Part shown: in pieces, positions 1,076 through 59,085 of the stretch
Position numbering within the stretch: the first letter of the stretch is position 1
Layout: the number at the start of each line of letters is the position of its first letter
Source of the DNA: an uncultured Acidobacteriota bacterium
GTDB lineage: Bacteria; Acidobacteriota; Thermoanaerobaculia; UBA5066
DNA length: 64,000 bases
Assembly (NCBI GenBank): GCA_963836285.1
Contig: CAWIIN010000002.1
Span: forward strand, 2,016,021-2,080,020
Direction of reading: 5' to 3'
Translations under genes and position numbers: made by a program
The notes under the pieces: model-generated
What the model was told of the DNA's origin: nothing
Seen by the model: the letters and a program-made list of their open reading frames with translations, nothing else
Database searches by the model: none

Positions 1076-1486
1076 ATGGGCCTGATCGATGACGTCCTCA
1101 GGGGAGTGAGCGGAGCGTCCGGCGGCGCCGTGGACCCGTCGCACCACAGCCTCGCGACCGAGCTCATGGGCATCCTCTCGGGCGACGGGACGTCGAAGGG
1201 CCTCGGCGGGCTCGTCGAGATGTTCAACGAGAAGGGCCTCGGGGACGTCGTGAGCTCGTGGGTGTCCACGGGGAGGAACCTCCCGATCTCGGCGGAGCAG
1301 ATCCAGGCCGTGCTCGGAAGCGCGCAGGTTCAGGCCCTCGCGGCGAAGGCGGGGATCGATCCCTCGGCCGCGCGTGCGGCGATCGCCCGGATCCTCCCGC
1401 AGCTCGTGGACCGCTGCACGCCGAACGGCCAGATACCGGCCAGCGGCATCCTCGACACGATTTCGGGGTTCCTCCGGAAGACCTGA
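1076..1486 (+). CDS. YidB/DUF937-family protein
   Basis: GLGGLVEMFNEKGLGDVVSSWVSTGRNLPISAEQIQAVLG...LPQLVDRCTPNG pattern. Confidence 0.85.
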   Translation: MGLIDDVLRGVSGASGGAVDPSHHSLATELMGILSGDGTSKGLGGLVEMFNEKGLGDVVSSWVSTGRNLPISAEQIQAVLGSAQVQALAAKAGIDPSAARAAIARILPQLVDRCTPNGQIPASGILDTISGFLRKT

Positions 1487-1489
1487 AGC

Positions 1490-2113
1490 CTAGAACGTCC
1501 TCGAATACACGTACGTGAAGGCGGACACCTTGCACCGGCGCACGGGCGGCTGGAACTTCACGGTCATGACCTCTGCCTTGACGGCCTCGGCACGCTCCTC
1601 GGACCCCGTCTCGTTCGTGACGACGCGGACGGTCTTCACGGCGCCCGACTCGTCGATGTCCGCCTCCACGACGACCTTACCCTTCGGTCCGGGCGCGTCG
1701 CTCATCCGGAGCATCGGGGGCTCGAGCAGGACTTCCTTGCGGTCCGGGAGACAGCCGTCGTCCTTCCGGAGGAGGTCCTTCCGGATCCACCCGGTGCGTG
1801 TGTCGGGGAGCCTCACGCGAACCCATCCCTCCCTTTCTTCGAATGACGTCAGGCGGGAGCCCTTCGTCGCCTTCGCAACCGTCCTGGCCCTCGTCGACGG
1901 CGTATCCCGCACGTTCACCGTTCTCGGAACGATCCAGGGGACCTCCACGGCCTGAGGAGCGGGCGGCTCCTCGGCGGCCTGCGCGGGCTCCGGAGCCGGA
2001 GCCGGCGGCGGCGCCGAGGCGCAGCCGCCCAGTCCGGCGAGAAGGGCAAGGGCGGCGGCGGCCGCGCCGACGCGCCGCGCGACCTCGGCGATGCGCGGAT
2101 CCTGGAGACGCAT
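1490..2113 (-). CDS. Lipoprotein with a bacterial SH3 domain and TonB C-terminal-like domain
   Basis: C-terminal 208 codons of ORF 1490..3643: lipobox LAGLGGC, SH3 (VNVRDTPS...GWVRVRLPDTRTGWI), TonB_C-like (GKVVVEADIDESGAVKTVRV). ATG at 2113. Confidence 0.75.
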   Translation of the reverse strand: MRLQDPRIAEVARRVGAAAAALALLAGLGGCASAPPPAPAPEPAQAAEEPPAPQAVEVPWIVPRTVNVRDTPSTRARTVAKATKGSRLTSFEEREGWVRVRLPDTRTGWIRKDLLRKDDGCLPDRKEVLLEPPMLRMSDAPGPKGKVVVEADIDESGAVKTVRVVTNETGSEERAEAVKAEVMTVKFQPPVRRCKVSAFTYVYSRTF

Positions 2114-52111: not shown

Positions 52112-52732
52112 ATGTTCAAGGAGCTCGCGAAGCACCTCTTCCCGCGGATGGTCCTGGGCGACAACCTGCGGATCCGATACACGTTTTGCCTCGGAGGCCT
52201 CGCGTTCACGTGCCTCCTCGTCCTCGCAGGAACCGGTCTCCTTCTCCTCTTCTATTACAGCCCGTCTCCCGCCGGCGCCCACGCCTCGATTCAGTTCCTC
52301 GAAAACGCCGTCTGGGGAGGGGGCTTCGTCCGGAGCCTGCATCGGGTCGCGTCGCACGTCCTTCTCGTTCTCGTCGCGTTTCACACGCTGCGGGTGCTCC
52401 TGACCGGAGCGTTTCAGCGGCCCCGAAGGCTGAACTGGGTCGTCGGGTGTCTCCTGCTGTTCCTGTGCGTCCTCGAGGCCTACACCGGCTACCTGCTTCC
52501 GATGGACCAGCTCGCGTACTGGGCTACGCAGACGGGCATGGAGCTGCTGCGGACGCTCCCGTTCGGGGACTCCGCGCGCTCCGTCCTGGTTCCGGACGCG
52601 GTGGGTGGGCCGCTGTCGCTGCTCCGGTTCTTCGCCCTCCACGTCGCGGTCGTTCCGCTCGTTCTGTTCGTTCTGTCGATGCTCCACTTCTTCATCGTTC
52701 GCAGGCAGAAAGGCCTTCTCCCTTACCTGTGA
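52112..52732 (+). CDS. extP: Cytochrome b6-like N-terminal subunit, ExtP-like
   Basis: YTFCLGG, GLLLLFYY.P, RSLHRVASH, HTLRV, NWVVG, TGYLLPMDQLAYWA, RFFALHV, LHF. Confidence 0.88.
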   Translation: MFKELAKHLFPRMVLGDNLRIRYTFCLGGLAFTCLLVLAGTGLLLLFYYSPSPAGAHASIQFLENAVWGGGFVRSLHRVASHVLLVLVAFHTLRVLLTGAFQRPRRLNWVVGCLLLFLCVLEAYTGYLLPMDQLAYWATQTGMELLRTLPFGDSARSVLVPDAVGGPLSLLRFFALHVAVVPLVLFVLSMLHFFIVRRQKGLLPYL

Positions 52733-53139
52733 GCGGATTCGTCCCCAGCTCCCCGCACCTCTTCAGGCCGCTCGAGCGGGCGCTTCTCGGCGGCGTCGCT
52801 CTGCTTTTCCTCCTCGCCGTCTTCTTTCCCGCGCCCCTCCAGATCGCGGCCGACCCGGCGCACCCGCCGAATCCAGCCAAGTCCGCTTGGTTCCTCCTGT
52901 GGATCCAGGAGCTCGTGAGCCACGACACGCTCGCGATTCACGCGGCGCTCGCGCTCGCGATCCTGCTCGTGGCGCTCCCGTGGCTGCCGATCCGGCCGGT
53001 CGAACGGGCCTCGTGGTTTCCGCGCCCGCAGAGGACGCTCGCCGTGATCGTCGTCGTCGTCTGCGGTGTTCTCGTCGCCCTCACGGCGACGGGACTGTTC
53101 TTCCGGGGGCCCGATTGGCATCTCGTCTCGCCCTTCTGA
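52729..53139 (+). CDS. extQ: Cytochrome b subunit IV-like membrane protein, ExtQ-like
   Basis: PAPLQIAADPAHPPNPAKSAWFLLWIQELVS, LPWL, FFRGPDW. GTG overlaps the previous stop. Confidence 0.82.
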   Translation: MSGFVPSSPHLFRPLERALLGGVALLFLLAVFFPAPLQIAADPAHPPNPAKSAWFLLWIQELVSHDTLAIHAALALAILLVALPWLPIRPVERASWFPRPQRTLAVIVVVVCGVLVALTATGLFFRGPDWHLVSPF

Positions 53140-53996
53140 TCGCGCCGCTTCTCCTCGTGGCGGGAGGCTGCGCGAAGACGCACGCGGAGGCCCGCGCCGG
53201 CGAGGGCTGCCGCGGCTGCCACGTGACGCGCCATGCGGAACGAGGGCCATGCGCGTCCTGCCACGGCGGCGATCCGGCCGCCGCGCGCGAGGAGCTCGCG
53301 CACCACCGCCTGATCACCGGAAGGGCCGCCGAGCACGGCATGCCGGACTCTCGGGCTGTGGCCGAGGGGCGCGACCGAGTCGAGCGACTCGCGTGCCGCA
53401 GATGCCACACCATCGGCGCGTCGGGCAATCGGCTCGCGACGAACCTCGACCGCGTCGCCTGGAGACGCGATCAGGCCGAGCTCGCGCGCTCGATCGGCAC
53501 GCCCGTCGAGAACATGCCGCGGTTCGGCCTCGATCGAGGTCAGGTCGAAGCCGCGATCGCGTACCTCCTGCATTCGGCGGACCCGAGCCTCGGAACGGAG
53601 ACGTACCGCGTCCGGTTCGCGAAGCGGGAAAGTGCTCGTGATTCGAGCCTCGAGACCCGATGCGGCGGATGCCACCGGACTCTCGGTGCCGGGAGCCCGC
53701 TCGGGAGAGGATCGGCCGGCCCCAACCTCTCGGGCGTCTTCACGGCTTTCTATCCGCCGACGGCGCCGGGAAGACGACCCTGGACTCCGTCGACGCTCCA
53801 AAGATGGCTCGAAAACCCCCGGGTGCTGCGGCCCGGAACGGCCATGCGCCCGGTCCGCGTCGCAGCCGCAGACTTCCGGGTCCTCGTCGAGGAACTCGGT
53901 GGGGCCTCATCTTGCTCGAAGGGGAGCCGCCGGGTGGGCGCCCGTCAGGGCGCGGGCGACTTCGAGCCGCAGGTGTTCAGCCCGAACAGCGAATAG
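53115..53996 (+). CDS. extS: c-type cytochrome lipoprotein with 4 CxxCH, ExtS-like
   Basis: TTG at 53115, lipobox VAGGC, CRGCH, CASCH, CRRCH, CGGCH, GPNLSG, WLENPR..RPGTAM. Confidence 0.75.
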   Translation: MASRLALLIAPLLLVAGGCAKTHAEARAGEGCRGCHVTRHAERGPCASCHGGDPAAAREELAHHRLITGRAAEHGMPDSRAVAEGRDRVERLACRRCHTIGASGNRLATNLDRVAWRRDQAELARSIGTPVENMPRFGLDRGQVEAAIAYLLHSADPSLGTETYRVRFAKRESARDSSLETRCGGCHRTLGAGSPLGRGSAGPNLSGVFTAFYPPTAPGRRPWTPSTLQRWLENPRVLRPGTAMRPVRVAAADFRVLVEELGGASSCSKGSRRVGARQGAGDFEPQVFSPNSE

Positions 53997-54079: not shown

Positions 54080-55219
54080 TCAGACGAGACGGAACTCCCA
54101 GCCACAATGCCCCTGCGCACCGGCGTCCGGCGGGCACGAGAGGCAGCGCGTCGTGATGCGCGGGTCGACGGTGCGCGCGAAGGTCTCGAACTCCACCTCG
54201 CCGACGGGCCTGCACGGGAAGTCGGGCAGGCCCTTGCGCCGGCGCGTCTCCTGTACGCGGCAGGACGTCATGAAGAAGCGCAGGACCGCGCCCTCCCGCT
54301 CGACCCGGCTGGGGTTCACGAAGCTGTAGGCCCGGAAGGAGAGCGCCCGCGCGAGCGCGTCGAGGCCGCCGTCCTTCGGGATCGCGTACGTCTCCATGAT
54401 CCGCCGCGCCTCGGCCGCCGCGAAGCGCCGCCACGCTCCAGCGTCGAGCTCCATTGCCACGTCCATCCCGAAGCGCTCCTCGGCGGCGAGGAACCAGCTT
54501 CCGTCGTGGGCGAGCCAGTTCTTCGCGAAGACGTCGAGTGCCTTGAGGAGGCCCGGGCGGTCGAGCGCTCCGAACGCGGGCGGCACCGCGGCATCCGCGG
54601 CGGCGGGAGCCGAGAAGGTCGCGAATCGCTCGTGGTGAGCCTCCCCCGCGGCGGTCTCCACCAGGCCGAGCGCGGACAGGAACCCGCGGGTCCAGTCCAG
54701 GGTGACGGGACCCTCCGGGTGGATGCGCTCCTCGGCCGCGTGGACACGCGCCGCGAACGCGAAGCCCTCGGGCGAGAAATCCGCGAGGAGGAGAACGCCG
54801 CCGGGCCGGACGACGCGCACGACCTCGCGCAGGACGGACGCGCCCTCGGCGAGGTGGTGGAGGACGTTGAACGAAACGGCGGAGGCGAAGGCGCCGTCGG
54901 GGAAGGGGAGCGCGGCCCCGTCTGCCGGCGTGAAGCGGATCGCGGCCTCGAGGCCCGTTCCGAGGGTGAGAGACGCGGCGACCTCCTGGTCCCCGGCGTT
55001 CACGTCCACGCTCTCGACGGTGAGTCCGCGCCGCGCGAGCTCGCGCGCCATGCCGCCCATCCCGGTGCCGAGATCGAGGACCGGCCCGTCGAGCGGGCCC
55101 GCCGCGTCGAGGACGAGCGCCGCGGCGCGCGCGCCGTCGTGTCCGAGAGCCGCGAAGGCCGCGCGCCGCTTCCGGAACGACTCTTTCCGACGCTCGATCT
55201 CGTCGGAGGCCAGCGTCAC
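54080..55219 (-). CDS. Class I SAM-dependent methyltransferase fused to a DUF6125-like Cys-rich domain
   Basis: VLDLGTGMG, LPFPDGAF, VVRPGG; then KNWLAHDGSWF, CRVQ..RRRKGL..FPC, CLSCPPD...CGWEF. GTG at 55219. Confidence 0.82.
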   Translation of the reverse strand: MTLASDEIERRKESFRKRRAAFAALGHDGARAAALVLDAAGPLDGPVLDLGTGMGGMARELARRGLTVESVDVNAGDQEVAASLTLGTGLEAAIRFTPADGAALPFPDGAFASAVSFNVLHHLAEGASVLREVVRVVRPGGVLLLADFSPEGFAFAARVHAAEERIHPEGPVTLDWTRGFLSALGLVETAAGEAHHERFATFSAPAAADAAVPPAFGALDRPGLLKALDVFAKNWLAHDGSWFLAAEERFGMDVAMELDAGAWRRFAAAEARRIMETYAIPKDGGLDALARALSFRAYSFVNPSRVEREGAVLRFFMTSCRVQETRRRKGLPDFPCRPVGEVEFETFARTVDPRITTRCLSCPPDAGAQGHCGWEFRLV

Positions 55220-55389
55220 GCGTCCGTTTCCTTCTTCGCCTCCGGCCCCGTCGGCCTCGAGCAGCTCGCCCCGCCTCCGGCGGGACCCGGAGCCCCTCAC
55301 GTCGGGACGCCGAGGCGCGGGAGGACGAACTTCTGGAGGAGTACCCAGACGAGGAGGGCGCCCCACAGCCATGCGGCGTCGGCGGTCAT
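55216..55389 (-). CDS. Small membrane protein with an in-frame UGA; candidate selenoprotein (57 aa with readthrough, 30 aa without)
   Basis: MTADAAWLWGALLVWVLLQKFVLPRLGVPT-UGA-GAPGPAGGGASCSRPTGPEAKKETDA*. Fills the gap between two operon genes; its final stop overlaps the next GTG; a hairpin follows the UGA. Confidence 0.6.
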
Positions 55390-55396
55390 GGCGGAC

Positions 55397-56629
55397 TCAG
55401 CCCCGGATCCCGAGCGCGCCGGCCCCGGCCGGAACGACCTGCGCGGCCTTCTCGAGCGCCTGCCCGACGTCGGCGATCAGGTCGCGCACATCCTCGCAGC
55501 CAACGGAGAGTCGCACGAGGTCGTCGGAAATCCCGGCGGCCTCGCGCTCCGCTTTCGGCATTCCCGTGTGCGTCATCGAGGCCGGGTGCTCGATCAGGGT
55601 CTCGACGCCGCCGAGACTGACGGCGAGCGTCGCGAGGCGCACGGAGTCGATGAGCGCCTTGCCCGCCTCGAGCCCGCCCTTGACGCCGAACGAGAACACG
55701 GCGCCCGGCCCGGACATCTGCCGCAGCATGAGCGCGTGCTGGGGGTGGCTCGGGAGGCCGGGGTGGAGCACCCACGCGACGCCGGGGTGCGCCTCGAGGA
55801 AGAGGGCGATCTCGAGCGCGTTTGCCTGGGCGCGCTCCATCCTGAGCCCGAGCGTCTTGACGCCGCGCAGGACGAGCCACGCCTGGTGCGGGTCCATCGT
55901 CCCCCCGAATGCGGTGTGGACCTTCCGGAGCCTCTCGTGGAGCGCGGGCGAGCCGGAGACGATCGCGCCGCCGACGACGTCCGTGTGGCCGTTGATGTAC
56001 TTCGTGAGGCTGTGGACGACGACGTCGGCCCCGAGCGAGAGCGGCTGCTGGAGGACGGGCGAGGCGAACGTGTTGTCCACGACGAGGAGCGCTCCGTTGG
56101 CATGCGCGATGTCGGCGCAGGCCGCGAGGTCCGTGAGCTTCATCGTCGGGTTCGCGGGGGTCTCGATGTAGACCATCCTCGTGGAGGGGCGCATCGCCGC
56201 CGCGACGTTCTGCGGATTCGAGGAGTCGACCCACGTCGAGGCGACGCCGAAGCGACGATACTCGTTCTCGAGGACCAGCCGGGACGGGCCGTAGACCGAG
56301 TCCGTCCCGACGACGTGGGCACCCTCGCCGAGGAACGTGACGTAGACCGTGTTGATCGCGGCCATGCCGGTCGCCGCGCCGAGCGCGCCGCAGCCTCCTT
56401 CGAGGGTCGCGAGGCACTCCTCGAGCGCCGCGACCGTCGGATTGCCGAGGCGCGTGTACTTGTAGCCCGGGTCGCGCCCCTGGAAGCGGGCGGCTCCCTC
56501 GTCCGCATTGCGGAATGCGAAGGTGGAAGTCTGATAGATGGGCGTCGAGACGGCGCCCGTGGCGGGGTCGGGGTGCTGTCCCGCGTGGATGATGCGGGTG
56601 GCCGGATGCATCTTGCGGAGGTCGGTCAT
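55397..56629 (-). CDS. Methionine gamma-lyase / Cys-Met metabolism PLP enzyme
   Basis: PIYQTSTF, YTRLGNPT, TGMAAI, ETPANP, VDNTF, HSLTKYINGHTD, AVSLGGVETLIEHPASMTH. ATG at 56629. Confidence 0.92.
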   Translation of the reverse strand: MTDLRKMHPATRIIHAGQHPDPATGAVSTPIYQTSTFAFRNADEGAARFQGRDPGYKYTRLGNPTVAALEECLATLEGGCGALGAATGMAAINTVYVTFLGEGAHVVGTDSVYGPSRLVLENEYRRFGVASTWVDSSNPQNVAAAMRPSTRMVYIETPANPTMKLTDLAACADIAHANGALLVVDNTFASPVLQQPLSLGADVVVHSLTKYINGHTDVVGGAIVSGSPALHERLRKVHTAFGGTMDPHQAWLVLRGVKTLGLRMERAQANALEIALFLEAHPGVAWVLHPGLPSHPQHALMLRQMSGPGAVFSFGVKGGLEAGKALIDSVRLATLAVSLGGVETLIEHPASMTHTGMPKAEREAAGISDDLVRLSVGCEDVRDLIADVGQALEKAAQVVPAGAGALGIRG

Positions 56630-58155
56630 GGTGCGTCCTTTCCGTGCGCGGGGGCGGCCGTGCGGGGCGCCCACTCGCCGGTGTCGTCTTTCTGGGAGTA
56701 ATCCTCCGCGAGCTCGTGGCCGCGCCGCGCGACGTGGTCGACGCCCTCGAGGAGGGCCTGGAACTCGTCCTCGCTCACGGTCGGCGCGAGGCTGATGCGG
56801 ACCCAGCCCGGCTTCTCGCCGAGGTGGCCCTCGTCGAGCCGATGGCGGATCGACTTCGAGCGCGCCTCGTCGATGTTCAGGAGGAGGTGTCCGTACGGGC
56901 CCGCGCACATGCAGCCGGCCCGGACCTGGATTCCGAAGAGGTCGTTCAGGAGCCGCGCCGCGAGGTTGTGGTGCACGCGGCGGAAGATGACGGAGAGGAC
57001 GCCGAGGCGCCGCGTCTCGAGGTTCCCGAGGAGATAGAGGTCGTCGCGGCCCTGCCACGCGCGGATCGCGCGGCCGAGGTATTCCTGCTCGACACGCTCC
57101 GTGCGCGCGGCGCCGACGGCCGCCTTGAGGTCGAAGGCGAGGCCGGCCTGGATCGTCTGGACGATCGGCGGCGTCCCGCCGGTCTCGCGCGACTCGATCG
57201 CGCCGAGGTAGCGGTGGTCCCACGGCGACGTGTAGAGCACCGTCCCGCCGCCCGGCTCGGCCGGGACACGGTTCGTGAAGAGCCTGCGGTGCGCGACGAG
57301 AATTCCCGGCGTCCGAGGGCCGCCGAGGAACTTGTGGACGGAAAAGAAGACGGCGTCGAGCGCGCTCCCGGGGTCGCCGGCAGGATGCATGTCCACGTCC
57401 ACGTAGGGTCCCGCCGCCGCGTAGTCGAAGAACGCGAGCGCGCCGTGCCGGTGGAGGACGCGCGCGAGGCCGTGGACGTCGTTCAGGATCCCCGTCACGT
57501 TCGACGCGGCGCTGAAGGTCCCGATCTTCCAGGGCCGGCTCCCGTGCGCCGCGAGCTTGCGGTCGAGGTCCTCGAGGCTGATCCGGCCGTCGGCGTCGAA
57601 CTCGACGTAGACGGAGTCGCCGACCGTCTCGCGCCACGCGATGTCGTTCGAGTGGTGCTCCATGAGCGACCGGAAGACGACGGGCCGGCCTTCCGGGGGG
57701 ATGCGGGCGGCGAGCCCGAAGCGCCCATCGAGCTGGTCCGGGAGCCTCAGGCCGAGGACGTGGATGAGCCGGTTGATCGCGCCGGTCGAGCCCGAGCCGA
57801 CCGGGATCACGGCGTCGTCCCCGGTCGCGCCCACGTACGCGCCGATCTTGCGGAGCGCTCCCTCGTAGAGATCCGTCATCCGGCGGGACGTGAAGTTGCT
57901 TTCCGTGTGCGTGTTCGCCATGAACGGGAGGACGCGCTCGTTCAGCTCGTCCTCGACGTCCCGGTGGAAGCGGCCCGAGGCGATGAAGTCGAAGTAGCGG
58001 AGCGGCACGTCGCCCGACGGGCCCGGGAGGACGGCGCCGGCGCCGATGACGCGGTCGCGGAGGTGCCCGAGGAACGCGGCCTCCTCGGCGGGCGCGGACG
58101 TGACGACGGGGCCGCGCGGCGCTGCGGAGGACGTGTCGACGAGACGGGGCGGCAC
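56626..58155 (-). CDS. Class V PLP aminotransferase, cysteine desulfurase/selenocysteine lyase-like
   Basis: YFDFIASG, ANTHTE, MEHHSN, AASNVTG, FDYAA, SVHKFLGGP, RAGCMCAGPYGH, KPGWVR. Confidence 0.88.
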   Translation of the reverse strand: MPPRLVDTSSAAPRGPVVTSAPAEEAAFLGHLRDRVIGAGAVLPGPSGDVPLRYFDFIASGRFHRDVEDELNERVLPFMANTHTESNFTSRRMTDLYEGALRKIGAYVGATGDDAVIPVGSGSTGAINRLIHVLGLRLPDQLDGRFGLAARIPPEGRPVVFRSLMEHHSNDIAWRETVGDSVYVEFDADGRISLEDLDRKLAAHGSRPWKIGTFSAASNVTGILNDVHGLARVLHRHGALAFFDYAAAGPYVDVDMHPAGDPGSALDAVFFSVHKFLGGPRTPGILVAHRRLFTNRVPAEPGGGTVLYTSPWDHRYLGAIESRETGGTPPIVQTIQAGLAFDLKAAVGAARTERVEQEYLGRAIRAWQGRDDLYLLGNLETRRLGVLSVIFRRVHHNLAARLLNDLFGIQVRAGCMCAGPYGHLLLNIDEARSKSIRHRLDEGHLGEKPGWVRISLAPTVSEDEFQALLEGVDHVARRGHELAEDYSQKDDTGEWAPRTAAPAHGKDAP

Positions 58156-58563: not shown

Positions 58564-59085
58564 TCAATGATGCCGATTGAGGGGGGAACCGGGGGATCGG
58601 CGGCGGGCCCTCGGGCCACCGGCCGGCGCGGACTCCTCGAGGAGCGCCACCGCCATGGCCGCGAGGAGGTCGGCGGCGGGCTGGAGGCGGCTCGCGGGAA
58701 TCCCGGCGAGGACGCGCGCGACGACGGCCTCGACCGTGCCCGTGGACGGCGCGTCGAGCTTCCGGCCGCGGGGGGTGAGCTCGAGACGCGTCCGGCGCCG
58801 GTCCCGGGGGTCGTGGGTGCGGTGAACGAGCTCGCGCCGCTCGAGGCGGTGAAGGATTCCCGTCAGCGTGCTCGGGTGCAGCCGGAGAATCTCCGCGAGG
58901 GTGCCCGCGGAAATTCCCGGTCTGCGGCCGAGCACCCGGAGCGTCACCCGCTGCGGGCCGGTGAGCCCGAACGAGGATTGCATTCGCTTCGAGAGGGACT
59001 GCAGCCCGTGATCGAGCGCCCAGATGAGGCGCATGAACTCGAGGACCCTCCCGAAGCGCTTCTCCGATGCGGGCGTCGCCGCCAT
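58564..59085 (-). CDS. MarR-family regulator
   Basis: GLTGPQ, LHPSTLTGILHRLE, DPRDRRR..LELT..G. Confidence 0.9.
   Translation of the reverse strand: MAATPASEKRFGRVLEFMRLIWALDHGLQSLSKRMQSSFGLTGPQRVTLRVLGRRPGISAGTLAEILRLHPSTLTGILHRLERRELVHRTHDPRDRRRTRLELTPRGRKLDAPSTGTVEAVVARVLAGIPASRLQPAADLLAAMAVALLEESAPAGGPRARRRSPGSPLNRHH

Follow-up and report, generated by a model that had tools for sequence, protein, structure and literature searches.

SELENOK and SELENOS are eukaryotic single-pass membrane selenoproteins, small in size, in which a single membrane helix is joined to a cytosolic tail that is disordered, charged, and rich in Gly and Pro and bears the selenocysteine (Sec). The bacterial redox selenoproteins with UxxC or CxxU motifs, listed in Table 1 of a 2026 review (PMC13188914), have an in-frame UGA, a SECIS element just downstream within the coding region, homologs with Cys, and a nearby partner Cys. 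The review also gives a bacterial SECIS model, a hairpin just past the UGA in which G is the first or second nucleotide of a small apical loop located 16 to 37 nt from the UGA, and its Table 1 includes short proteins of earlier screens (OS_HP3, GOS_B, GOS_C, DG, DW, and DF) that bear function-less names and are known by their Sec/Cys pairs plus SECIS. The locus described here resembles all of these systems in the features named. It lies in a stretch of 64,000 nt from an uncultured Acidobacteriota bacterium (the window), where a sequence-only reading had proposed a hidden small membrane open reading frame (ORF) with an in-frame UGA as a candidate new selenoprotein. The refutation tests that accompanied it were run on the genome and on homologs, and none refuted that reading. 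We assign a probability of about 0.85 to the locus encoding a small membrane-anchored protein whose in-frame UGA would be read as Sec.

Gene anatomy and coding potential

The coordinates first proposed for the hidden ORF, those of its ATG, UGA, terminal stop, and GTGA overlap, were all confirmed on the minus strand (Table 1). The stop of the lyase gene is at 55399 to 55397, and the ATG of the small gene sits 7 nt beyond it, at 55389. From this ATG, 30 sense codons (MTADAAWLWGALLVWVLLQKFVLPRLGVPT) lead to the in-frame TGA at 55299 to 55297, and the frame past the TGA runs for 26 further codons (GAPGPAGGGASCSRPTGPEAKKETDA) to a TGA at 55218 to 55216. In relatives, tblastn matches to the methyltransferase start at the GTG residue of the GTGA overlap. 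The ORF is a genuine gene whose product would have about 57 residues. In the 30 codons before the UGA, GC content by codon position is 0.73/0.47/0.93, which is gene-like when compared with the 0.70/0.49/0.94 of the lyase. After the UGA it is 0.69/0.81/0.85, an ambiguous pattern without the usual periodicity of the genome. We also compared the openness of the three frames past the UGA, and the other frames were open too; openness is uninformative here because the neighboring genes hold other frames open.

Table 1. Positions of the small gene, its parts, and its neighbors in the window
Feature	Position	Strand	Detail or basis
Small selenoprotein gene (candidate)	55216..55389	-	57 sense codons, Sec = codon 31, plus terminal TGA
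Predicted single membrane helix, residues 3-25	55315..55383	-	AlphaFold2 model and Kyte-Doolittle
Conserved juxtamembrane motif P-R-L-G-V-P-T, directly before the Sec codon	55300..55320	-	
In-frame UGA, inferred Sec	55297..55299	-	TGA in 127/127 loci
SECIS-like hairpin core, 8-bp stem and GGA apical loop	55268..55286	-	Fold and covariation
Cys43, 12 residues past Sec; clade-specific site of the partner cysteine	55261..55263	-	
GTGA overlap of the terminal TGA with the GTG at which the next gene starts (55219-55217)	55216..55219	-	
Downstream neighbor, SAM methyltransferase fused to DUF6125	54080..55219	-	Pfam PF08241, E 3.9e-18; PF19620, E 4.6e-59
Upstream neighbor, Cys/Met-metabolism PLP enzyme, methionine gamma-lyase-like	55397..56596	-	Pfam PF01053, E 2.8e-150
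Class-V aminotransferase, cysteine desulfurase/selenocysteine lyase type, further upstream	56626..58155	-	Pfam PF00266, E 2.4e-37
MarR-family regulator, head of the same-strand gene row	58564..59085	-	Pfam PF01047, E 6.5e-16

The in-frame UGA and its homologs

The main competing explanation is that the UGA is an ordinary stop, so that the gene would make a 30-residue membrane micropeptide and the hairpin would, for example, stabilize the mRNA or couple the gene to the next one. Public gene calls do end there, many proteins of 29 or 30 residues match positions 1 to 30 of the family profile, and P0005 ends at T30. The homolog set, however, comprised 127 loci from 126 genomes, each with an N-terminal part of 29 to 31 codons followed by a TGA and a tail, and the internal codon was TGA throughout, whereas their terminal stops were mixed. 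In favor of an ordinary stop, TGA was also the commonest codon at the terminal position (79/126), followed by TAG (29) and TAA (18), with one gene running off its contig. Thr directly precedes the UGA in all 127 loci, and P24, L26, and T30 are invariant in alignment A2. In the named genomes, where the search pattern admitted TGA, TGC, or TGT at the Sec position, there were 119 family loci, 117 with TGA and 2 with TGC. TAA or TAG at this position, as an ordinary stop might have in homologs, was looked for and occurred in 0/127 loci and 0/119 named loci. A match in G262 was discarded as spurious since it was inside a long ORF without a stop, and a second match in G343 (L139) was not confirmed as a family locus.

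Homologs with UGA or Cys at the Sec position and with the downstream coding kept had been named as support for a selenoprotein, and both kinds were found. P0004 is 76% identical, with Cys at the UGA position and the same tail. Out of 1.84 billion representative proteins, 646 matched the family profile at E<=0.001; in the 60 that were fetched, the Sec position held Cys in 42, W in 9, and G in 3. A second search returned 459 proteins at E<=0.001, with Cys at the Sec position in 60/60 fetched. Metagenomic Cys homologs number in the hundreds and show the motif PTCMSGAC, with the Cys exactly at the UGA position. Among 32 Cys-codon loci seen as DNA, TGC and TGT were the only replacements. These Cys codons stand in homologs whose frame runs on, which argues against an ordinary stop.

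Conservation past the UGA, the absence of which had been named as evidence against the selenoprotein, was found at two levels, as a hairpin with compensatory changes and as amino acids. Ser at U+2 is drawn from two codon families (TCN in 33 cases, AGC in 12), a further argument against an ordinary stop, and Cys at U+5 is encoded by TGC (53) or TGT (23). In the window subtype outside its own genus, Val at U+2 is GTC, GTT, or GTG in 7 cases each, and Pro at U+3 is CCC (11), CCG (11), CCA (2), or CCT (2). The post-UGA tail is under constraint as protein; beyond the conserved residues it is poorly conserved. The common form of the family is T-U-M-S-x-x-C, with the signature T-[U/C] where the helix ends and then the partner Cys. 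The clade of the window has T-U-[A/G]-[V/A]-P-x-P, then hairpin-encoded residues, then S-C. The first Cys past U is at +5 in 76/127 loci and at +11 to +15 in 34/127, and 9/127 have no tail Cys. The Cys noticed earlier at 12 residues past the UGA was confirmed as Cys43, with the refinement that this position is particular to the clade, whereas Cys at U+5 is the majority state in the family.

The downstream hairpin

The window hairpin, CCCGCC-GGA-GGCGGG, extends to 8 bp, with arms GUCCCGCC (55286 to 55279) and GGCGGGGC (55275 to 55268) around a GGA loop at 55278 to 55276. The UGA and the loop are separated by 18 nt, and the loop begins 21 nt from the U of the UGA, which is within the range of the bacterial model. 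The sequence-only reading had cautioned that hairpins form easily at such GC content, and this holds for the window hairpin taken singly, with a fold z-score of -1.4 and 16/200 shuffles folding equally well. At 69% GC, hairpins arise readily and the single-sequence signal is within chance, in line with an ordinary stop. Comparison with relatives raised the signal far above chance. A strict hairpin (a stem of 6 bp or more and a 3- to 6-nt loop that has G as its first or second nucleotide and starts 16 to 37 nt from the U) was present in 105/115 members, with 10/115 failing the 6-bp test, compared to 756/7496 (10.1%) of the other TGA triplets of the same loci. There were 69 distinct stem sequence pairs across the members. 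In alignment A1, 89.5% of cells were paired and 5/8 pairs changed on both sides, which 0/500 shuffles reached.

The hairpin is also largely lost where Cys replaces the UGA, contrary to what an ordinary stop would explain. The strict hairpin occurs in 89/117 TGA forms from named genomes, the other 28/117 missing the 6-bp test, compared to 3/32 Cys-codon forms; when stems of 5 bp are also accepted, the counts are 111/117 and 6/32. The proposed fit to the general bacterial SECIS model is thus borne out in distance, loop, frequency against controls, and compensatory changes. Judged by position, loop, and covariation, the hairpin is in all probability a SECIS element.

Selenocysteine machinery and distribution

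The genome of the window, for which the Sec machinery had been suggested as a check, has selA (433.5 bits), selB (326 bits summed), selD (347.7 bits, a gene that also contains an in-frame TGA), and a tRNA-Sec (62 bits, anticodon tca). Genuine carriers of the small gene made up 99/401 sampled genomes of the phylum of the window. By a tally made by eye from two tables, in which related genomes are not independent, selA was found in 98/99 carriers and in 203/302 of the other sampled genomes. The carrier in which selA was not found (G287, 95% complete) has selB (363 bits) and a tRNA-Sec (71.6 bits). The 401- and 61-genome tallies include four unpublished genomes (G037, G042, G108, and G210), 0 of which carry the gene. 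Further carriers bear the labels Desulfobacterota, Acidobacteriota, Planctomycetota, Armatimonadota, and others. Carriers are without exception Sec users. This distribution likewise speaks against an ordinary stop, which we consider improbable. A truncated product is nevertheless likely to exist too, because SelB-dependent recoding is described as only partly efficient in E. coli in the abstract of PMC4513850.

Read-through of the UGA without Sec, by near-cognate insertion of Trp or Cys or through some other recoding signal, is less probable still. Translation past the UGA is supported and the residue inserted there is one that we infer, and W and G stand at this position in 9/60 and 3/60 database proteins. 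These W and G forms, however, would be the expected output of gene calling under code 4 or 25, and the natural replacement in DNA is Cys (TGC or TGT only), not Trp or Gly. The distance and loop of the hairpin also fit the SECIS model given in PMC13188914, and the family is limited to genomes that have Sec machinery. A chance open frame in a GC-rich spacer is hardly credible: the window has many spurious ORFs in all six frames, but the first 30 codons have a gene-like composition, conservation extends over several phyla, with P, G, and T residues that do not vary, and the profile matches number 646.

Membrane anchor, gene neighborhood, and proposed function

The AlphaFold2 model on alignment A2 placed a helix at residues 3 to 25, with a mean pLDDT of 78 and 87 in the first two ten-residue blocks, and the Kyte-Doolittle 17-residue maximum was 1.74. 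The tail was modelled as disordered (pLDDT <50 from residue 38). Mean K+R was 0.2 in the N flank versus 1.8 in the C flank, and the C side was higher in 75/85 members. The membrane anchor of the original proposal is therefore supported by the modelled helix and by the charge bias of the flanks. By the positive-inside rule, the Sec/Cys pair would lie at the membrane surface that faces the cytoplasm.

The small gene had also been placed in an operon for S/Se amino acids. This setting holds for the genus of the window but not for the family at large. Neighboring genes were clustered with overlap resolution to remove shadow frames of the GC-rich DNA, and genes for thioredoxin-like, persulfide-dioxygenase/rhodanese, DUF302, TauE, and ArsR proteins recurred beside family members. 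No universal partner gene was found, the top partner occurring in no more than about 1/5 of the family loci. In one wetland metatranscriptome run, 5% of the sampled words were present, and the fitting contigs were all from relatives, 22/32 of them less than 90% alike. One 151-nt contig among these covered 55305 to 55381, and no cover was seen over 55062 to 55304.

In the mechanism that we propose, SelB with Sec-tRNA(Sec) would bind the hairpin beginning 11 nt past the UGA and Sec would be inserted, whereas failure of recoding would release a 30-residue peptide. The full product would consist, in order, of a short N-terminus, the membrane helix, P-R-L-G-V-P-T, Sec, and a charged, disordered tail containing a single cysteine. 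The Sec/Cys pair would most likely act as a selenenylsulfide redox couple or bind a chalcogen or soft metal. Across the family its partners could be the products of the recurring genes, and in the genus of the window those of the adjacent desulfurase, gamma-lyase, and methyltransferase genes. The protein may accordingly be described as a presumed juxtamembrane Sec/Cys redox or chalcogen-handling peptide, a functional proposal that is weak because the gene neighborhoods are heterogeneous.

A much wider reading is tentative and, in our estimate, rather unlikely to hold in full. The locus would represent an undescribed multi-phylum class of juxtamembrane T-U-x4-C micro-selenoproteins of about 50 residues, the counterpart of SELENOK/SELENOS in architecture. 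Its members would be membrane-tethered carriers or reductants of persulfide, selenide, or soft metals, acting, within stress islands under ArsR control, at transporters and thioredoxin-like partners; in the genus of the window, they would link the breakdown of selenocysteine and methionine to methylation. Since gene callers end the frame at the UGA, such a class would have been overlooked in hundreds of genomes.

If the Sec reading is correct, the bacterial selenoproteome would gain a common rather than a rare family, whose members would rank among the shortest selenoproteins. It would also expose an annotation blind spot, since the Sec forms are in public databases as "hypothetical proteins" of 29 to 30 residues, some of them apparently mistranslated, the UGA being rendered as W or G. 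Matched Sec and Cys forms and the recurring sulfur, thiol, and metal-stress neighbors would give a handle on the value of a selenol at the membrane face.

Comparison with known systems

Scanned against Pfam and NCBIfam, P0001 together with 8 Sec forms and 10 Cys forms fell into no family and gave only chance rows (E 0.06 to 0.32), those from NCBIfam being three unrelated matches (E 0.07 to 0.32). None of the selenoprotein models of NCBIfam release 20.0 matched P0001, the 8 diverse Sec forms, or the 10 Cys forms at E<=10, and neither did models NF041197, NF041374, NF045500, NF049953, and NF049942, which represent the small families of earlier screens (OS_HP3, GOS_B, GOS_C, DG, DW, and DF). The Tso and MduS families, which reportedly stem from Haft and Tolstoy 2025, were compared through NCBIfam models only. 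The database names of the homologs are "hypothetical protein", and in the ESM Atlas the nearest cluster to one Cys form was likewise an unnamed "hypothetical protein" (score 0.87, below the lead threshold of 0.9). Table 1 of the 2026 review (PMC13188914) lists 119 selenoprotein families and nothing similar among them, and the deep-Sep, BSepDB, and Haft and Tolstoy 2025 tables might include the family. Judged by that table, ours would be the sole single-helix membrane micro-protein among selenoproteins. The proteins form a large, widespread, and unnamed family of single-pass micro-proteins.

The YgaP-like TM domain (PF11127, formerly DUF2892) shares the helix-end motif L-G-x-x-T-C. Homology to it was rejected, as hhalign gave a probability of 14% over 13 columns and hmmscan gave no match, and the resemblance is a lead rather than homology. 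At one family locus (L036), a gene for a YgaP-like TM domain is directly downstream. The motifs listed in Table 1 of PMC13188914 for OS_HP3, GOS_B, GOS_C, DG, DW, and DF are RxU, UxxC, GUxG, and GxU, in contrast to the T-U-x4-C of this family. Compared to the UxxC and CxxU selenoproteins, the spacing is U-x4-C, or U-x10-14-C in the clade of the window, and the protein is predicted to have no thioredoxin-like or other fold, with about 50 to 60 residues, one membrane helix, and a disordered tail. With SELENOK and SELENOS the likeness is one of architecture alone, no Pfam match having been obtained at E<=10. Unlike in those proteins, Sec would be located at the membrane interface and not near the C-terminus, and the SECIS would be of the bacterial in-frame type.

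A small gene interrupted by UGA

The small gene starts 7 bases past the stop codon of a methionine-gamma-lyase-like gene on the minus strand and contains one in-frame UGA, the putative selenocysteine (Sec) codon. The sequence-only reading had claimed that the terminal stop overlaps the GTG of the next gene and that a hairpin follows the UGA. Both were borne out: the terminal TGA lies on GTG 55219 of a methyltransferase-DUF6125 gene, and the hairpin has an 8-bp stem and a GGA loop. On its own, however, this hairpin and open reading frame (ORF) prove little. The single-sequence fold of the hairpin had a z-score of -1.4, and the GC content by codon position was gene-like in the first 30 codons (0.73/0.47/0.93) and ambiguous in the codons past the UGA (0.69/0.81/0.85). 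A 430-codon ORF overlaps the small gene in a different frame; its N-terminal extension is probably not translated, because methyltransferase homology in relatives starts only at GTG 55219. Just past the methyltransferase gene, an ORF on the opposite strand encodes two cytochrome c domains.

Features in and around the small gene in the window
Feature	Position	Strand	Remarks
Small gene, N-terminal part	ATG 55389 to UGA	minus	MTADAAWLWGALLVWVLLQKFVLPRLGVPT
In-frame TGA	55299-55297	minus	directly after MTADAAWLWGALLVWVLLQKFVLPRLGVPT
Small gene, post-UGA part	ends TGA 55218-55216	minus	26 codons, GAPGPAGGGASCSRPTGPEAKKETDA
Methionine-gamma-lyase-like gene	stop 55399-55397	minus	PF01053, E 2.8e-150
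430-codon ORF	54080-55372	minus	ATG 55372
ORF with two cytochrome c domains	52605-53996	plus	PF13442, E 1.1e-10

Distribution of the family and conservation of the UGA

When 60 related genomes were searched with the UGA read through, the family gene was recovered in 21 of the 28 other genomes of the window's genus, 8/8 genomes of other genera of its family, and 2/24 genomes of its order. The gene was not found in seven genomes of the genus (56 to 95% complete), and two of the 60 genomes without it were the unpublished G037 and G042. The homologue check proposed earlier favored read-through, as each match in these genomes had exactly one in-frame TGA with the frame running on beyond. All 32 loci, including the window, had 29 to 31 codons encoding the same helix and a P-R-L-G-V-P-T motif before the TGA.

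A profile built from the close relatives matched 100/401 sampled genomes of the phylum (64/227 genera). The match in G262 was spurious on inspection, leaving 99 true carriers. Judging by similar sequences, this phylum is probably Acidobacteriota. When all 127 loci (126 genomes) were pooled, TGA was the internal codon in every one and was always directly preceded by Thr, while the terminal stops were TGA (79), TAG (29), and TAA (18), with one off the contig end. We additionally scanned one genome per species with a DNA pattern allowing TGA, TGC, or TGT at the Sec position, which covers the common subtype only because it requires Met at U+1 and Cys at U+5 (U+n being the nth residue after the putative Sec). 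This yielded at least 120 stretches; among the matches listed, 119 were evaluable and all were family members, 117 with TGA and 2 with TGC. Their labels included Desulfobacterota/Thermodesulfobacteriota, relatives of Geobacter and Syntrophobacter, Acidobacteriota, Planctomycetota, Armatimonadota, KSB1, Spirochaetes, and others, and one was the cultured strain Geomobilimonas luticola JCM 17780.

Association of the hairpin with the UGA

The strict hairpin test was based on the bacterial SECIS model as quoted in a 2026 review (PMC13188914) and required a stem with 6 or more contiguous pairs, a 3- to 6-nt loop with G at position 1 or 2, and a loop start 16 to 37 nt from the U. Such a hairpin was present in 105/115 members, compared to 756/7496 (10.1%) other TGA triplets of the same loci. 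The stems comprised 69 distinct sequence pairs, and the loops were chiefly GGC, GGUC, GUC, and GGA. When the window's clade was aligned, 89.5% of the stem cells were paired, with four rows with 4-nt loops out of register and scored as unpaired, and both sides had changed in 5 of 8 pairs; none of 500 shuffles matched the observed pairing or covariation.

Among the matches listed from the named genomes, 89/117 TGA forms had a strict hairpin and 111/117 had at least 5 bp. In contrast, the corresponding numbers were 3/32 and 6/32 for the Cys-codon forms (2 genomic loci and 30 evaluable of 33 metagenomic loci). The GC contents of the two groups were alike. The hairpin and the UGA thus go together, and the hairpin is the predicted SECIS element.

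Evidence for translation past the UGA

A metagenomic protein of 59 residues (P0004) is 76% identical to the window's product, with Cys exactly where the UGA stands and the same tail. A HMMER search of 1.84 billion representative proteins gave 646 matches at E<=0.001, which fell into two size classes: proteins of 29 to 30 residues ending at profile position 30, and proteins of 44 to 90 residues in which the frame runs through. In 60 examined longer matches, the Sec position held Cys (42), Trp (9; P0006, P0012, P0027, P0028, P0067, P0073, P0109, P0118, and P0119), Gly (3; P0022, P0030, and P0056), or another residue (6). The Trp and Gly forms are probably from metagenome contigs on which TGA was translated under genetic code 4 or 25. 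A second profile matched 459 proteins at E<=0.001, with Cys at the Sec position in 60/60 examined and P-T-C-M-S-G-A-C as the usual motif.

Codon usage also supports the continuation of translation beyond the UGA. Cys at U+5 occurs in 76 members, collected without any condition on the tail. They encode Ser at U+2 by TCN (33) or AGC (12) and the Cys by TGC (53) or TGT (23). In 29 loci of the window's subtype outside its genus, Val at U+2 is encoded by GTC, GTT, and GTG (7 each) and Pro at U+3 by four codons.

Sec machinery

As the sequence-only reading had proposed to check, the window's genome was searched for Sec machinery. It encodes selA (433.5 bits), selB (326 bits), selD (347.7 bits), and a tRNA-Sec with anticodon tca, and the organism is therefore able to make selenoproteins. 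The selD match lies outside the window (contig C3, 406479-407456) and has one TGA in frame; the selenophosphate synthetase is therefore probably itself a selenoprotein.

Across the 401 sampled genomes, selA was present in 301: 98/99 carriers of the family gene versus 203/302 noncarriers. The two tables were matched by eye, and we report counts without a P value because kin genomes are nonindependent. These tallies include the unpublished genomes G037, G108, and G210, none of which has the family gene. The one carrier in which selA was not found, G287 (95% complete, 8.7 Mb, 6 contigs), has the family gene with TGA, selB (363 bits), and tRNA-Sec (71.6 bits), and its congener G306 has selA.

Architecture, gene neighborhoods, and possible role

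AlphaFold2, run on the family alignment, predicts a single helix (residues 3 to 25), with pLDDT below 50 for all residues past 38. The mean number of Lys and Arg residues was 0.2 before the helix versus 1.8 in the 16 residues that follow, and the C side had more of them in 75/85 members. By the positive-inside rule, this points to an N-out/C-in topology with Sec at the cytoplasmic face. In subtype 1 (T-U-M-S-x-x-C), the first Cys is at U+5 (76/127 loci) or U+6 (2 loci). Subtype 2, that of the window (T-U-[A/G]-[V/A]-P-x-P), has it at U+11 to U+15 in 34/127 loci, with the hairpin nearer the UGA than in subtype 1. The first Cys is further on in 6/127 loci, and the tail has no Cys in 9/127.

The genes lined up on the small gene's strand in the window are MarR, class-V aminotransferase, gamma-lyase, the small gene itself, and methyltransferase-DUF6125. 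The proposed S/Se amino acid operon is for the most part limited to the window's genus. The lyase was present at 11/127 and the methyltransferase at 18/127 pooled loci; among the matches listed, they were present at 3 and 0 of 119 named loci.

Other neighbors from separate clusterings of the 127 pooled loci and, among the matches listed, the 119 named loci
Neighbor	Pooled loci	Named loci	Remarks
Thioredoxin-like/TlpA-like redoxin	22/127		median gap 55 nt
Thioredoxin		11/119
DUF302	20/127	8/119
ArsR regulator	13/127	16/119
Metallo-beta-lactamase fold	14/127	24/119	often with rhodanese
TauE/SafE	10/127
RND efflux pump	23/127
Zn-ribbon (FmdB type; Zn_ribbon_8)		14/119
ECF sigma factor		12/119

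At locus L066 (1213-1641, minus strand), the read-through frame continues over 113 codons and into an FmdB-type Zn-ribbon sequence (MPLYEYRC...), and at L112, in another genome, such a gene begins a few codons past the family-gene stop, close to position 1587 when read on the minus strand. At L036, a YgaP-like transmembrane domain gene (1259-1513, minus strand; PF11127, E 8.7e-22) lies directly downstream, followed, from reading the translations alone, by TauE-like and permease-like genes.

Taken together, the neighbors point to a theme of thiol, sulfide, chalcogen, or metal stress, and no universal partner gene was found in the pooled loci or among the named loci listed. We therefore propose with only modest confidence that the product is a membrane-tethered selenol/thiol couple. 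Such a couple might cycle via a selenenylsulfide recycled by a thioredoxin-like protein, or it might carry a persulfide, selenide, or soft metal.

Comparison with known families

Pfam and NCBIfam had no matching model for the window's product, for 8 diverse Sec forms, or for 10 Cys forms. Homologues are named "hypothetical protein" in databases, except that 1 of 120 listed is an "uncharacterized protein HemY." None of the 119 selenoprotein families in Table 1 of PMC13188914 has the motif or form of this family, passages on deep-Sep and BSepDB do not mention a membrane microprotein, and the papers found on membrane-anchored or transmembrane selenoproteins concerned only eukaryotic SELENOK/SELENOS. 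Within Pfam, NCBIfam, that table, and these passages and papers, the family looks undescribed. Public collections hold its members cut to 29 to 30 residues and others with Trp or Gly in place of Sec. The predicted recoding mechanism is the ordinary bacterial one.
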